Part shown: positions 26,812-31,104 of the stretch, in pieces
Position numbering within the stretch: the first letter of the stretch is position 1
Layout of the letters: the number at the start of each line of letters is the position of its first letter
From: Actinomycetota bacterium
GTDB taxonomy: Bacteria > Actinomycetota > CADDZG01 > JAHWKV01
Direction of reading: 5' to 3'
Length of the DNA stretch: 64,000 nucleotides
Assembly: GCA_052389675.1 (NCBI GenBank)
Contig: JBQTHR010000032.1
Coordinates: 17,262 to 81,261 of the forward strand
Translations under genes and position numbers: made by a program
The notes under the pieces: model-generated
Database searches by the model: none
Seen by the model: only the letters and a program-made list of their open reading frames with translations
Told to the model about the DNA's origin: nothing

Positions 26812-29800
26812 ATGCGATTGAACCTTACAATCCTTGATCCCCTTGCCTCGGTGGCCGAACATGTGGTCCTGACTGCGGAAACCGAAACCCCCATGGAACC
26901 TCTGCTGCGCGCGTTGGGGTCGATCGTTCCGGGCCCTTACTACCTTCGGGGCATGCGGCTTGACGGCTGGCCGACTTTGGGAGAGGGCGAACTCAAAGAC
27001 GGCGACGTCCTGACCGTCCGGCCGAGCCCGACCGGCCGCTTTCGAGTTGACTCCCGCTTGGAGCTGGCCGCCACCGGCGGGCCGCTGAGTGGGAGGCGTT
27101 GGCCGCTTTCGAATGGCGCCACCGTTGTCGGGCGGGCCAAAGAGGCCGACTTGCGGCTGGAGGACCCCCGACTTTCTCGCCGGCATCTGCGCCTTACGGT
27201 AACGGGAGAAACGTTTTCAGTGGAGGACCTGGGTTCTACGAACGGCACCCTGGTAGAAGGCAGGCTTGTGCAGGGAACCGCCCCGGTTGCCCTTGGCCAG
27301 GCAATCGAGGCTGGGTCTACCTTGTTTGAGCTTCGGTTGGTAGAGCGGGCAGACGCCGACATCTGCAGCGACGGATCGGGCGGGCTGGAGTTCAACCGTC
27401 CGGCCCGCATCCGGCACCACAGCATGGAGCTCAAAGTGGCAATGCCCGCGAAGCCGGGCGAGTCCGATCAGACCGTCCCCTGGGCCCAGATCGGGGCTCC
27501 GCTGGGGATGGGTGTGGCCGGTGCCTTTTTATTCGGGCCCTCGTCGCTGCTTTTCGCCGGCATGAGTCTGGGCACCACTCTTGCTCACCGCCGGATTCAA
27601 GGTAAGCGGTCCCGCAAGGAGCAGCAGACATACCTGGCAGAGTTGGCACGCATTCAAGCGAAGATGGTGGAAGCTGCCGCTCGGGAGCTTGCCGAACAGC
27701 GTCGCCAGTTCCCGGACCCGGCCACAGTATCCACCATCGCCACCGGCCCCGGCCGGCGACTGTGGGAACGCCGGCATCATGACCCGGACGCCTTCCTGCT
27801 TCGTGTGGGGATCACTGACCGTCCAGCTTCGGTGATGCCGTCGGGGCGCGGCAGTGGATCAGATACACTGGAATCTCCCAGACTGGCTACCGTGCCGGTG
27901 GGCATTGATCTTGCTTGGGCCGGGGTGCTGGGAGTGGCCGGGCCGGTGCAAGCTACCCGTGGCGTTGCCCGCTGGCTGATCGCCCAGTTCGCTACGCTGC
28001 GAAGTCCCCGGGATCTGTCGATCATCGTCTTGACCCAGAGTGCGGCCAAGGACGACTGGGATTGGGTGCGCTGGCTACCGCATGTCCGGGTTGACGATCC
28101 GCACTACCCGGTCGCCATGATTGGAAATGACCAGTCTTCTCGGCAGGAGCGGATCCGAGAACTCCTCAAGCTGGTGGAGGTGCGAACTGAGATGGCCCGG
28201 GAGGAGCGCGTCACCCGGTTCATCCCATCCGTTCTGGTGGTGTTAGACGGGGTAAGGGCCCTCAGGGCCATCCCCGGAATGCCCCGGCTGCTCAAGGAGG
28301 GTCCTGCGGTTGGGATCTACATGATCGGGCTGGACGATGACGATACTCGCCTGGCTGAGGAAGGCCGCGCCCAGCTGGTGTTCTCCCCCGACCATTCCGC
28401 ACTAGCGACGCTGGAGGTGGACGGCGCGGAACCGCTCACCAGGGTGTTGCTTGACCAGGTCGATCCGTCGTGGGCCGAGGAGGTAGCCAGAGGTTTGGCG
28501 CCAGTCAGAGATGCCGGAGAAGACGGCGAGGGCGAGATCCCCAGGTCTGTGCGCTTCGTCGATATTTCCGGGGTTGACCTTGACAACCCTGAAGAGCTCG
28601 CGGCCACCTGGTCAACAAGAGGACGAACCACCGAAGCGCTGGTCGGTGTGTGCTCTGACGGGCCGTTTACCGTTGACCTGAGGCGCGACGGCCCACACGC
28701 GCTGGTCGCCGGAACCACCGGGTCCGGCAAGAGCGAGTTTCTGCAGACGCTGGTGGCCTCGCTTGCCCTGGGCAACCGGCCCGATGCAATGAACTTTGTG
28801 TTGATCGACTACAAGGGGGGCGGCGCGTTCCTCGACTGCGAACATCTTGTCCACACGGTGGGAATGGTCACCAATCTGGACGGGCACCAAACGGAACGGG
28901 CCTTGGCGTCCCTGGACGCCGAACTTAAGCGCCGGGAGCGGCAGCTCAAACAGCTTCGCAGCCCGGATATCGAGGCGGCCTGGGAGCAGGATCCAGACGG
29001 TTCCGGACGGGCGGGTTTGGCCCGCTTGGTGATTGTGATCGATGAGTTTGCTGAGCTTGTCCAAGAGTTGCCGGACTTTGTTGCCGGCCTGATACGCATT
29101 GCTCGGGTGGGCAGATCGTTGGGAGTGCACCTCATTTTGGCCACCCAGAGGCCGGCCGGGGTGGTTTCGCCCGAGATGAGAGCCAACACCGGCATGCGGG
29201 TGGCGCTTCGTATGGTGGACAAATCTGAAAGTAGCGAGGTTTTAGAGTCGCCGGTGGCTGCCGGGATAGCCAGGTCAAGCCCCGGGCGGGGATTCGTCAG
29301 AACCGGCGGGCGGAGCGCGCTCGTCGAGTTTCAAAGCGCCAGAGTTGCCGGACGCCGCAAGGGCAGCACCGAGGCGCTGCCTCCGCCCAGGGTGGATCGA
29401 GTGACTTGGAGCGAACTAGGCTATTCGCTGCAGGAACCGGTGCGCGCCCAAAAGGACGCCTCTGCTGCTACCGACCTGCATGCGTTGGTAAAGCTGGCCC
29501 AGCGTGCAGCGGAGAAGCTCGGGATCGAGCGCTCACCCAGCCCCTGGCTCCCGGAGTTGCCTTCCGCCCTGACCGTCCAGGAAGTACGGGCCGCCGGCGC
29601 AGCGGCTCAGGTGGGTTTGGCCGCGCCCTTTGGCCTGGAGGATCTACCAGAACAGCAGGCCAGGCGAGCGGTCTTGTTTGATCTGGCCGGCGGCCAGCAC
29701 CTGCTGATCGCCGGGTCGTCCCGGTCTGGGAGGTCTACCGCCCTCAGAACCATCGCAGGATCGCTCGGGCAGGAAGTGTCACCTTCCGATCTTCATATGT

Positions 29801-31104
29801 ACGTGCTTGACTTCGGAAACGGATCCCTGCTCAGCGTGGGTGACCTCCCGCATTGCGGCGCGGCGGTTTCCCGATCCGAGATCGCTCGCGCAGAGCGGTT
29901 GATAGAGCGCTTGAGTGAAGAGCTGACCCGCCGCCAACAGACCCTTGCCGAGGCCGGGTGTGGCGACATCCTGGAGCAGCGGGCTACTGCCGACCCAGCC
30001 GGGCGGTTGCCCTACATTGTGATTCTCGTTGACCGCTGGGAAGGCTTCACCGCCCAATTCCCCGCCGACTCGCCTTCTGATGCATCAGCCGCCCTCATGC
30101 GGCTGGTTCGCGAAGGCTTGGGAGCCGGCTTTCGAGTGGTGGTGAGCGGGGACAGGAGTCTGCTGAACGACAGGATGGCCAATTTGATCGAGAGCAAGCT
30201 GGTCCTGCGTCTGGCCGACCGCAACGACTATCGCTTGGTTGACATCAACCCCAAGTTCGTTCCCAATGAGGTCCCACCGGGCAGAGCGTTTCGCGGTGAC
30301 ATTGGAACAGAGGTCCAGTTGGCCCTTCTCGACGGGGATCCTTCCAGCCAGGGCCAAGCAGCGGCCGTCCGAAGACTTGCCGGGCAGACCATCGCGCGCT
30401 GGCCCGAGTCCGAGCGCGCCAACCGGCCGTTGTGTGTGGAAACCCTTCCGGCCGTGATCAGCCTGAACCGGATCCGAGAGCTCGTACACGTCCGACAGCC
30501 CGCTCTTTGGATGGCAGTCGGCGTGGGGGGAGACGAGTTGACTGCCTGCGGTGTGGATCTGTCCCGTTTGGGGGGTTTCGTGGTGGGCGGTCCTGCGCAC
30601 TCCGGCCGGAGCACCGCACTGCTCGCGATGGCCAACTGGCTTGTGTACAGGCAAATCGCTGTGCTCGCCTTATGCCCCAAGCCCTCTCCTTTGGGAGCGC
30701 TGGCGGGGGCAACCGTGATCATCGGCACTGCCGGAATTTCGGACCGCATCGAACAAGAGCTGGCCGGGCTGGTTCACCCGGTTGTGGTCTTCGTGGACGA
30801 TGCCGAGATCCTTGCTCGCACTCCAGCCGACGATGCCCTAAAACAGTTCCACCGCGCCCGGGGGCCCGGGGAGGCGGCAGTGGTTGTGGCCGGGGTCATC
30901 GACGACCTGAAAGCCGATCTGAGAGGCTCAATCACCGAGGCCAGGAGGGCCAAAGCGGGGCTGCTACTTTCCCCTTCGTCGACATTGGACGGCGACCTGG
31001 TGGGTGTGCGTCTTGCCCGCAACCAGGTGGGCAGGACCTCGCCGGGCCGGGGCATCCTCGCAGTTGACGGTAGAACGATCTTGGTCCAGGTTCCGGGACC
31101 ATGA
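26812..31104 (+). CDS. T7SS FtsK/SpoIIIE-family ATPase (EssC/EccC-like) with N-terminal Ubl-like + FHA domains
   Basis: FHA core is GATVVGR...RRHLRL...STNGTLV. There are two TM helices. Three P-loop domains are present: D1 GTTGSGKSEF with VIVIDEFAEL, D2 GSSRSGRSTAL and D3 GPAHSGRSTAL. Confidence 0.92.
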   Translation: MRLNLTILDPLASVAEHVVLTAETETPMEPLLRALGSIVPGPYYLRGMRLDGWPTLGEGELKDGDVLTVRPSPTGRFRVDSRLELAATGGPLSGRRWPLSNGATVVGRAKEADLRLEDPRLSRRHLRLTVTGETFSVEDLGSTNGTLVEGRLVQGTAPVALGQAIEAGSTLFELRLVERADADICSDGSGGLEFNRPARIRHHSMELKVAMPAKPGESDQTVPWAQIGAPLGMGVAGAFLFGPSSLLFAGMSLGTTLAHRRIQGKRSRKEQQTYLAELARIQAKMVEAAARELAEQRRQFPDPATVSTIATGPGRRLWERRHHDPDAFLLRVGITDRPASVMPSGRGSGSDTLESPRLATVPVGIDLAWAGVLGVAGPVQATRGVARWLIAQFATLRSPRDLSIIVLTQSAAKDDWDWVRWLPHVRVDDPHYPVAMIGNDQSSRQERIRELLKLVEVRTEMAREERVTRFIPSVLVVLDGVRALRAIPGMPRLLKEGPAVGIYMIGLDDDDTRLAEEGRAQLVFSPDHSALATLEVDGAEPLTRVLLDQVDPSWAEEVARGLAPVRDAGEDGEGEIPRSVRFVDISGVDLDNPEELAATWSTRGRTTEALVGVCSDGPFTVDLRRDGPHALVAGTTGSGKSEFLQTLVASLALGNRPDAMNFVLIDYKGGGAFLDCEHLVHTVGMVTNLDGHQTERALASLDAELKRRERQLKQLRSPDIEAAWEQDPDGSGRAGLARLVIVIDEFAELVQELPDFVAGLIRIARVGRSLGVHLILATQRPAGVVSPEMRANTGMRVALRMVDKSESSEVLESPVAAGIARSSPGRGFVRTGGRSALVEFQSARVAGRRKGSTEALPPPRVDRVTWSELGYSLQEPVRAQKDASAATDLHALVKLAQRAAEKLGIERSPSPWLPELPSALTVQEVRAAGAAAQVGLAAPFGLEDLPEQQARRAVLFDLAGGQHLLIAGSSRSGRSTALRTIAGSLGQEVSPSDLHMYVLDFGNGSLLSVGDLPHCGAAVSRSEIARAERLIERLSEELTRRQQTLAEAGCGDILEQRATADPAGRLPYIVILVDRWEGFTAQFPADSPSDASAALMRLVREGLGAGFRVVVSGDRSLLNDRMANLIESKLVLRLADRNDYRLVDINPKFVPNEVPPGRAFRGDIGTEVQLALLDGDPSSQGQAAAVRRLAGQTIARWPESERANRPLCVETLPAVISLNRIRELVHVRQPALWMAVGVGGDELTACGVDLSRLGGFVVGGPAHSGRSTALLAMANWLVYRQIAVLALCPKPSPLGALAGATVIIGTAGISDRIEQELAGLVHPVVVFVDDAEILARTPADDALKQFHRARGPGEAAVVVAGVIDDLKADLRGSITEARRAKAGLLLSPSSTLDGDLVGVRLARNQVGRTSPGRGILAVDGRTILVQVPGP

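Follow-up and report, generated by a model that had tools for sequence, protein, structure and literature searches.

Type VII secretion systems (T7SSs) have been divided into the types T7SSa–j (Garrett, Higginson & Palmer 2024; PMC11217815). Among these, T7SSd is the only additional actinobacterial type; its ATPase bears an FHA domain with a conserved phosphothreonine (pThr) motif and is accompanied by a kinase, and the system is said to lack any ubiquitin-like component and to need TsdH and TsdI (PMC11217815). Assembly requires YukD, which contacts the FHA domain and the domain of unknown function (DUF) of the ATPase YukB (Oka et al. 2025; PMC12637312), and the ubiquitin-like domain (Ubl) of EccD binds the DUF of EccC (PMC12637312). 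In Actinomycetales, a 2026 bioRxiv preprint describes threonine phosphorylation and FHA control of the export of a subset of Esx substrates, with an FHA output protein fused to EccC (PMC13622651). Here, we analyse a 64,000-nucleotide stretch of DNA from an Actinomycetota bacterium (assembly GCA_052389675.1, contig JBQTHR010000032.1; the window), in which, as judged from its sequence, the open reading frame (ORF) 26812..31104 encodes a secretion motor of the EssC/EccC type that belongs to a separate clade of Actinomycetota. A Ubl and an FHA domain are fused to this ATPase, and arginine stands at the position of the Walker A lysine in both its second and its third ATPase domain (D2 and D3).

Domain architecture of the ATPase

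The ORF opens with an ATG that has an AGGA 7 nt upstream and closes with a stop codon at 31102–31104; its homologues share MRLNL at their start. Pfam matches FtsK_SpoIIIE in two stretches (8.7e-57), and a search of PDB sequences returned EccC of Thermomonospora curvata (4NH0, 1e-82) and YukB of B. subtilis (9QKS, 1.5e-70), together with EccC5 and EccC3, in an alignment that spans the transmembrane (TM) region through to D3. The domains are arranged in the order Ubl, FHA, juxtamembrane motif, predicted TM hairpin, DUF/D0, D1, D2 and D3 (Table 1), with the tandem D1–D3 after a DUF/D0 that marks EssC/EccC-type ATPases, as aligned to 4NH0, 9QKS, 7NP7 and the EccC3 DUF. These features are not a product of chance, because the match to 4NH0 and 9QKS extends over the whole protein and the motifs recur family-wide. 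The best NCBIfam models are those of EssC, EccCa and EccCb, each with a score under its curated cut-off: 562.4 bits against 778.4 for the T7SSb EssC equivalog TIGR03928, and 380.6 against 509.15 and 295.1 against 346.55 for the T7SSa EccC models TIGR03924 and TIGR03925.

An original prediction, made from the DNA letters alone, had read this gene as an ATPase with a putative Ubl, one FHA domain, two TM segments and three P-loop domains. When ORF, codons and motifs were rechecked, all its sequence statements on 26812–31104 were correct. Its three P-loop domains correspond to D1–D3; the number of ATPase-like domains is four, counting the DUF/D0, which it had omitted.

AlphaFold2 (AF2) modelled residues 1–74 alone with a predicted local distance difference test score (pLDDT) of 91.7 and a predicted template modelling score (pTM) of 0.76. 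The top 50 Foldseek matches of this model in the PDB were all ubiquitin/SUMO-type beta-grasp proteins and include the EccD Ubl of ESX-5 (7np7_D2, 7npt_D8) and ESX-3 (6sgx_C, TMq 0.69), the EccD domains having the highest sequence identity in the list (22%). A hidden Markov model (HMM) of the family N-terminus found almost exclusively ubiquitin-like matches among PDB sequences (best 2.7e-5), and the N-terminal segment is conserved throughout the ATPase family. In a second AF2 model, of residues 1–200 with 69 family sequences (mean pLDDT 91), a beta-beta-alpha-…-beta unit at residues 1–70 is followed by a low-confidence linker and by the FHA sandwich at residues 83–176. The ubiquitin-like beta-grasp fold expected at the N-terminus was thus found by structure prediction, Foldseek and the family profile. 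The label 'YukD/EccD-type' given to it holds only at the level of the fold, because the Pfam YukD model (PF08817) does not match the N-terminus even at E ≤ 10, where a weak Lambda_tail_I match (0.015) is all that appears.

Arginine P-loops in D2 and D3

Only D1 has a complete set of catalytic residues: its Walker A motif, GTTGSGKS, contains K640 (codon AAG, 28729–28731), and its Walker B motif, VIVIDEF, contains D744–E745 (29041–29046). D2 has GSSRSGRS with R974 (AGG, 29731–29733) and ILVDRW, in which D1074 is followed by R1075 (30031–30036) and which provides no catalytic glutamate. D3 has GPAHSGRS with R1266 (CGG, 30607–30609) and VFVDDA with D1329–D1330 (30796–30801). The sequence SGRSTAL is common to D2 and D3, and this motif, both arginine codons, the D1 lysine codon and the DEF motif are all as originally predicted.

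A homologue search of 5.8 billion proteins gave 2706 matches among 8000 candidates scored, and the top 120 are Actinomycetota proteins of ~1450 aa, mostly annotated just as 'FtsK/SpoIIIE domain-containing'. Across 116 full-length homologues (41–63% identity), the lysine and the glutamate of D1 are each found in 116/116, as is the arginine of D2; the arginine of D3 is present in 114/116, with lysine in the remaining two. The Walker B pair of D2, DR, is kept in 111 of the 116 and that of D3, DD, in 114. A 55-sequence alignment shows G968, G973, R974, D1074, G1260, G1265 and D1329 to be invariant, with R1266, D1330 and the serine after each arginine at least 90% conserved.

The original prediction had made conservation of the arginines in orthologues the safeguard against a sequencing artefact, and the counts bear it out. 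Five different codons (CGC, CGG, CGT, AGA and AGG) encode the conserved arginine across 28 related loci, so selection acts on the amino acid; with arginine near-universal at both sites and the codons mostly CGN, two steps from AAR, an artefact is ruled out.

Canonical EccC and EssC D2 domains carry the Walker A lysine and, in our alignment, DN or DG after the Walker B aspartate, that is, no catalytic glutamate. Non-catalytic D2/D3 domains are therefore usual in the family and do not result from the lysine-to-arginine change. In the alignment to 7NP7, D3 of EccC5 has the Walker A motif GRRECGRT with a natural arginine, and Ates et al. (2015) reported this arginine in nucleotide-binding domain 3 of EccC5 in ESX-5 systems (PMC4418733). 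There, R1181A lowers secretion and growth and R1181K is tolerated (PMC4418733), which argues for a functional rather than a decayed site. The substitution described here is probably a clade marker that tunes a pre-existing regulatory site, and not what makes D2 and D3 non-catalytic. The earlier suggestion that these domains are regulatory or substrate-binding modules may hold, with the lysine-to-arginine change set aside as its cause and with a precedent for the D3 arginine in EccC5.

A distinct actinobacterial clade

For a wider scan, 80 loci ranging from close relatives to outgroups, one genome per species, were all aligned to the family HMM; they include T7SSa EccC (Mycolicibacterium, Prauserella, Micromonospora, Actinoplanes), Firmicute EssC (Listeria, Streptococcus, Clostridia) and Coriobacteriia ATPases. 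In the core clade, Walker A reads G-x-x-R-S-G-R-S/T in D2 and G-P-x-x-S-G-R-S/T in D3. A sister actinobacterial clade (Microbacterium, Leifsonia, Gordonia) has lysine in D2 and either lysine or arginine in D3, and the T7SSa rows have lysine in both domains. Among the Firmicute and Coriobacteriia sequences, D2 has lysine in most, with two degenerate Coriobacteriia rows and arginine in one Myxococcota-labelled metagenome-assembled genome (MAG), and D3 has lysine or is gapped or degenerate. An HMM search detected a fused Ubl in 31 of the actinobacterial loci and in no outgroup.

Two quick trees, with the root not inferred, were computed from these alignments, one with FastTree (72 rows) and one with IQ-TREE in quick mode (47 rows, D2 P-loop columns removed). 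Both contain an Actinomycetota clade (support 99; 29 of the 47 rows) to which neither T7SSa EccC nor the Firmicute/Coriobacteriia group belongs. Inside it lies an 18-row clade (Shimodaira–Hasegawa-like approximate likelihood ratio test 99) that consists of D2-arginine sequences only, with the D2 P-loop columns left out. At the sequence level, D2 arginine marks one well-supported clade, and the Ubl-FHA-ATPase architecture with its double arginine characterises a large family rather than this genome alone. Within Actinomycetota, the clade ranges over Streptomyces, Frankia, Nonomuraea, Kribbella, Geodermatophilus, Microbacterium and many MAGs.

The scan also contains two giant ORFs of 2854 and 2936 aa, in a Chloroflexi genome and an uncultured bacterium (L071, 4437–13001, and L072, 7406–16216), which score as EssC-like over about twice the normal length and have a second GTTGSGKS where D3 would align. 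Each may have arisen by the tandem fusion of a pair of EssC-like motors.

Putative membrane anchor and the FHA domain

In the juxtamembrane motif, GGLEFNRPARI, R196 and R199 are invariant and N195 and P197 at least 90% conserved. It precedes a single 36-residue hydrophobic stretch, W224–H259, in which TM1 (W224–F241), a GPSS turn and a short TM2 (L246–H259) can be distinguished; the two TM segments of the original prediction are supported by hydropathy and by homology to EccC3 only, the homology pointing to the usual two-helix hairpin. TM2 (LLFAGMS----LGTTLAH) is four residues shorter than in nearly all homologues, a feature shared only by the closest of them (P0003, 63% identity); by alignment, the hairpin has thus undergone a deletion particular to this lineage. 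The DUF/D0 sits between the hairpin and D1 and has a Walker-B-like VLVVLDG and no P-loop.

The ATPase has one FHA domain. Pfam FHA matches residues 104–161 (E 1.4e-14) and Yop-YscD_cpl, the model of the YscD cytoplasmic FHA domain, residues 90–175; the FHA core originally placed at 27095–27275 corresponds to residues 95–155, inside the second match and overlapping the first. The canonical pThr-contact residues are all present (G107-R108, S122-x-x-H125 and N144-G145). A Foldseek search with the 1–200 model returned FHA matches only, among them GarA, FhaA and OdhI, with TM-scores of 0.85–0.89 relative to the target.

The surrounding locus

Table 1 Features of the ATPase gene and of its neighbours (positions in the window).
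Feature	Position	Strand	Basis or remark
Whole ORF, EssC/EccC-like FtsK/SpoIIIE secretion ATPase	26812..31104	+	1430 aa, reading frame open
Ubiquitin-like beta-grasp domain, residues 1–72, in cis	26812..27027	+	AF2, Foldseek, family profile
Single FHA domain, residues 83–176	27058..27339	+	Pfam FHA, Foldseek
Juxtamembrane motif, residues 190–200	27379..27411	+	alignment conservation
Hydrophobic hairpin, residues 224–259	27481..27588	+	hydropathy; aligned to EccC3 TM/stalk region
DUF/D0, degenerate ATPase-like domain, residues ~296–575	27697..28536	+	aligned to EccC5 DUF (8rin), EccC3, 4NH0, YukB
D1, predicted catalytic ATPase, residues ~585–850	28564..29361	+	Pfam FtsK_SpoIIIE 598–782
D2, residues ~925–1185	29584..30366	+	motifs, alignments
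D3, residues ~1215–1430	30454..31101	+	motifs, alignments
204-aa soluble protein	31101..31715	+	start overlaps ATPase stop (ATGA); unannotated family
Two small ORFs in immunity-gene position	31962–32354, 31717–32178	-	follow the 410-aa toxin candidate; no family match
Candidate substrate, 410 aa	32351..33583	-	Pfam Scabin-like 1.8e-28, WXG100 4e-7, T7SS_signal 5e-4
Helical partner protein, 92 aa, no WXG motif	33580..33858	-	sequence, Pfam
WXG100 (EsxA-like), 97 aa, C-terminal YQDTE	33879..34172	-	Pfam WXG100 6e-23
Ser/Thr kinase, 3 PASTA repeats	34315..36639	+	Pkinase 2.5e-60, PASTA 7.7e-32; divergent from WXG100 gene

A WXG100 gene lies within a few kb of the ATPase gene in most related loci. 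In the window it belongs to a minus-strand operon, with the genes for the 92-aa and 410-aa proteins and the two small ORFs, that is convergent with the 204-aa gene. The 410-aa candidate substrate, an LXG-like protein, begins with a WXG100/T7SS-signal-like region, continues through a hydrophobic segment and ends in a Scabin-like mono-ADP-ribosyltransferase domain; its hydrophobic stretch, of ~60 residues, has a weak NolX match, and an Arg / S-x-S-like / E-x-E pattern is seen by eye.

The gene for the 204-aa protein is translationally coupled to that of the ATPase. Thirteen related loci (Streptomyces, Frankia, Kineosporia, Microbacterium, Leifsonia) also have a homologue of this protein next to their ATPase. 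Members of this family of ~200 aa have an N-terminal strand motif F-x-hydrophobic-x-V-P-x-x-W and a C-terminal LFDA..ST.R; Pfam gave no match for 14 members, and no PDB sequence matched below E = 0.2.

The PASTA kinase gene stands alone, outside the usual pknB/pstP/rodA/fhaAB cluster. Its product contains a Pro/Ala-rich spacer and ends in an additional Cys-containing domain of ~110 aa for which Pfam gave no match.

The 26 other large ORFs scanned in the window are of a housekeeping kind (G6PD, LeuRS, ZnuABC, ComEC, LepA, HrcA, DnaJ, transporters, sugar-modifying enzymes), and Pfam did not match four further ORFs, of 278, 475 and 698 aa and the 204-aa protein. Among the scanned window ORFs (≥245 aa), Pfam found neither EccB, EccD, EccE or MycP nor EssB or EsaA, and in the same scan no T7SSb set of EssA, EssB (YukC) and EsaA with a free YukD/EsaB. 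EccB, EccD, EccE, MycP, EssB and EsaA are likewise absent from the precomputed Pfam matches listed for four related loci with flanks (L001–L004), which combine the ATPase with WXG100 proteins, small helical proteins and T7SS_signal toxins and show no other known T7SS core genes.

One of these (L002, 1–24314, GCA_030447475.1) has a ~12 kb cassette of ATPase, WXG100 and T7SS_signal-toxin genes inserted into an NADH dehydrogenase operon, after its Oxidored_q2 (nuoK-like) gene on one side and its Proton_antipo_M (nuoL-like) gene on the other, which suggests that the compact locus moves as a unit. Another (L003, 4939–8112, Streptomyces sp., GCA_029504575.1) has a degenerate FHA domain, yet two Ser/Thr kinase genes flank it; it also has a WXG100 gene and a 204-aa homologue, and lies beside futalosine-pathway (VitK2_biosynth) genes. 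Elsewhere in the window, an ORF at 36702–37688 (minus strand) has three ZT_dimer matches (2.1e-32), an unusual triple repeat for the tail of a cation-diffusion facilitator; an ORF at 37517–38221 overlaps it, which hints at a frame problem.

Proposed mechanism and alternatives

We consider it likely that this ORF is the membrane-anchored motor ATPase of a compact, unclassified actinobacterial T7-like locus, with the roles of Ubl, FHA and D1–D3 proposed below. These functions are what we infer from the observed architecture, namely its composition, conservation, clade and neighbourhood. D1, with GSGKS and DEF, would be the sole hydrolysing site and would power export, the likely cargo being the WXG100 protein encoded nearby, together with the LXG-like ADP-ribosyltransferase toxin and its helical partner. 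D2 and D3 have conserved arginine P-loops, keep the serine and the Walker B aspartate and lack the catalytic glutamate; they would probably bind nucleotide without turnover, with the arginine perhaps holding it in place, and act as scaffold, regulator and substrate-docking module, like D2/D3 of canonical EccC. The fused Ubl would do in cis what YukD in T7SSb and the EccD Ubl in T7SSa do in trans. By analogy with YukD, its most likely docking sites are the DUF and FHA domains of its own polypeptide, and it would thereby organise the protomer for oligomerisation. The FHA domain would read a pThr and so tie assembly or activity to a cell-envelope signal; a Ser/Thr kinase would write this mark, and the PASTA kinase encoded alongside may be that kinase.

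Several points weigh against this picture. The negative results on core genes cover the window and the loci L001–L004, and other membrane components could lie elsewhere in the genome. TM2 is unusually short, the pTM of the 1–200 model (0.63) does not fix the placement of Ubl and FHA relative to each other, and the case for nucleotide binding by the arginine P-loops is one from conservation and the ESX-5 D3 precedent. Roughly half of the family, including all Streptomyces members, has kept the FHA domain and lost its pThr-binding residues (GR, SxxH and NG). No kinase is found within 10 kb in the three closest related loci, and among 28 core-clade loci only ~6 have one at a distance of up to 8 kb. 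Linkage to a kinase may be particular to some lineages or a coincidence, and the kinase is not treated here as a conserved component.

These last observations, on the pThr residues and on the kinase, would also suit an FHA domain that is a phospho-independent assembly module, with the PASTA kinase an unrelated housekeeping enzyme. T7SSb offers a model for this: the FHA domains of EssC/YukB have no pThr site and bind the pseudokinase YukC and YukD (PMC11217815, PMC12637312). We regard this alternative as unlikely, albeit the strongest of those considered, since the pThr-contact residues are complete in this protein and its subclade, the nearest structures are pThr-binding FHA domains, the PASTA kinase and WXG100 genes share a divergent control region, and pThr/FHA control of Esx export has been shown experimentally in Actinomycetales (PMC13622651). 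The FHA domain of this subclade probably reads a pThr, and the PASTA kinase next to the locus is a reasonable candidate for the enzyme that writes the mark. The phospho-Thr-dependent control implied by the original prediction is thus plausible for this protein, with its intact site and adjacent kinase; about half of the family is without these residues, and no kinase gene lies beside the ATPase in the closest relatives.

For D2 and D3, the competing proposal is that they are dead pseudo-ATPase domains that bind no nucleotide and serve only as scaffold or substrate dock, the arginine being a tolerated remnant. The Walker A lysine is indeed replaced in both, D-R in D2 and D-D in D3 leave no catalytic glutamate, and some Firmicute EssC D3 P-loops are gapped or non-consensus (L042 and L051–L053 in the hmmalign table). 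Decayed sites vary, however, and here the P-loop G-x4-G-R-S/T and the Walker B aspartate are near-invariant at 41–64% identity, with many synonymous arginine codons. The natural D3 arginine of EccC5 is also needed, R1181A being defective (PMC4418733), and we hold dead domains to be improbable. Nucleotide-binding, non-hydrolysing modules are the most likely reading of D2 and D3, given P-loops under strict purifying selection, the missing glutamate and the functional requirement for the EccC5 D3 arginine.

Still less probable is that the arginines act as functional lysines and that all three domains hydrolyse ATP during transport. Engineered Walker A lysine-to-arginine mutants of P-loop ATPases usually bind nucleotide and do not hydrolyse it. 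The Walker B aspartate of D2 is followed by arginine, not glutamate, in 111/116 homologues, and canonical lysine-bearing D2 domains also lack the glutamate. Hydrolysis is favoured by the acidic pair DD, which D3 keeps after its Walker B strand, and by EccC5, where R1181K is fully tolerated and lysine and arginine are interchangeable in D3 (PMC4418733).

A DNA translocase of the FtsK/SpoIIIE or conjugative TraB type, as in the public annotation of relatives ('DNA segregation ATPase FtsK/SpoIIIE') and weak NCBIfam matches, is rejected as having next to no probability, since the scores are tiny against their cut-offs (FtsK 59.6 vs 1566, TraB 45 vs 800), the DUF+D1–D3 layout can be aligned over its full length with EccC and YukB, and a WXG100 gene adjoins the ATPase in most loci.

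Significance

The literature searched contains no description of a Ubl-FHA-ATPase clade or of the double arginine. What appears new is the combination, a clade of Ubl-FHA-ATPases with arginine in both D2 and D3; precedents exist for the D3 arginine (EccC5), for a D2 without the glutamate and for Ubl binding to DUF and FHA domains. The fusion of Ubl and FHA to the ATPase in cis provides independent, genome-encoded support for the interaction of YukD with the FHA and DUF domains of YukB, and suggests re-examining systems reported to be without a Ubl for fused ones. The clade-wide replacement of lysine by arginine in D2 and D3 amounts to a natural experiment on the role of non-hydrolysing nucleotide sites in EccC/EssC, and tractable Streptomyces carry orthologues, which makes the question directly testable.

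Should the locus prove as compact as it looks, it would be a natural minimal T7SS, helping to define what is needed to move folded WXG100/LXG substrates across a membrane. More speculatively, and with doubts that outweigh our confidence by some way, the clade might be a further unnamed T7SS subtype built on an all-in-one polypeptide (Ubl, FHA, channel-forming TM hairpin, one working ATPase and two arginine P-loop nucleotide sites that do not hydrolyse), exporting WXG100-guided polymorphic toxins without EccB/D/E/MycP or EssA/B/EsaA and gated, in the present genome, by a PASTA kinase that senses cell-wall damage.

Comparison with known type VII systems

Membership in T7SSa, T7SSb and T7SSd was considered and rejected for each, as at least one defining feature fails in every case. 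T7SSd (Olsenella, Bifidobacterium; PMC11217815) is like this locus in being actinobacterial with few core components, in the FHA domain of its ATPase TsdC, which has a conserved pThr motif, and in having a Ser/Thr kinase in the locus (here 34315–36639). It differs in that it is reported to have no Ubl component, in an ATPase that groups with T7SSb-like EssC, in its kinase TsdD, whose extracellular part is helical and not PASTA, and in its core proteins TsdH and the large Ig-like TsdI; this locus has no large Ig-like secreted protein. Two FHA-bearing Coriobacteriia ATPases (L069, L081), stand-ins that are not shown to be T7SSd, have D2 P-loops without GK or GR (GSADAGVE, GSAGSGAE) and no detected fused Ubl, and group with Firmicute EssC rather than with this clade in trees without reference TsdC from Olsenella or Bifidobacterium.

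EsrG-EccC fusions (PMC13622651) resemble this ATPase in that an FHA-containing signalling output is translationally fused to an Esx ATPase, with threonine phosphorylation controlling a subset of substrates. EsrG differs in consisting of a pseudophosphatase, a disordered region and an FHA domain and in acting in a vWA/MoxR/beta-propeller sensing pathway, whereas here a Ubl precedes the FHA domain, and the Pfam matches of the window include no Esr-type genes.

EssC/YukB of T7SSb (9QKS; Geobacillus EssC D2–D3, 4LYA/5FV0) differ from this ATPase in having two FHA domains without a pThr site and a free-standing YukD, where here one canonical FHA domain and a fused Ubl are found, and lysine in D2; T7SSb also needs EssA, EssB/YukC and EsaA, and no EssB or EsaA is near this gene. 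T7SSb resembles the present locus in an FHA region before a TM hairpin (a predicted one here), followed by DUF and D1–D3, in its substrates, which like the probable cargo here comprise a WXG100 protein and toxins of the LXG kind that have small helical partners, and in its need for ubiquitin-like YukD/EsaB, which touches the FHA and DUF domains, as the fused Ubl would here.

T7SSa EccC (4NH0; M. tuberculosis EccC5, 7NP7; EccC3) lacks an N-terminal Ubl or FHA domain, its Ubl sitting on EccD, and has lysine in D2 in all examples of the 80-locus scan, where this ATPase has arginine. EccC is accompanied by EccB, EccD, EccE and MycP, none of which is near this gene in the window, and the present ATPase falls into a separate clade and below the EccCa and EccCb cut-offs. 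Both nevertheless have a TM hairpin (predicted in this ATPase), a DUF/D0 and three tandem FtsK-like domains, a D1 with lysine and DE, a D2 without the catalytic glutamate, a link to WXG100 substrates and a Ubl as partner of the DUF (a proposed one in this ATPase), and EccC5 shares with this ATPase the natural Walker A arginine in D3.

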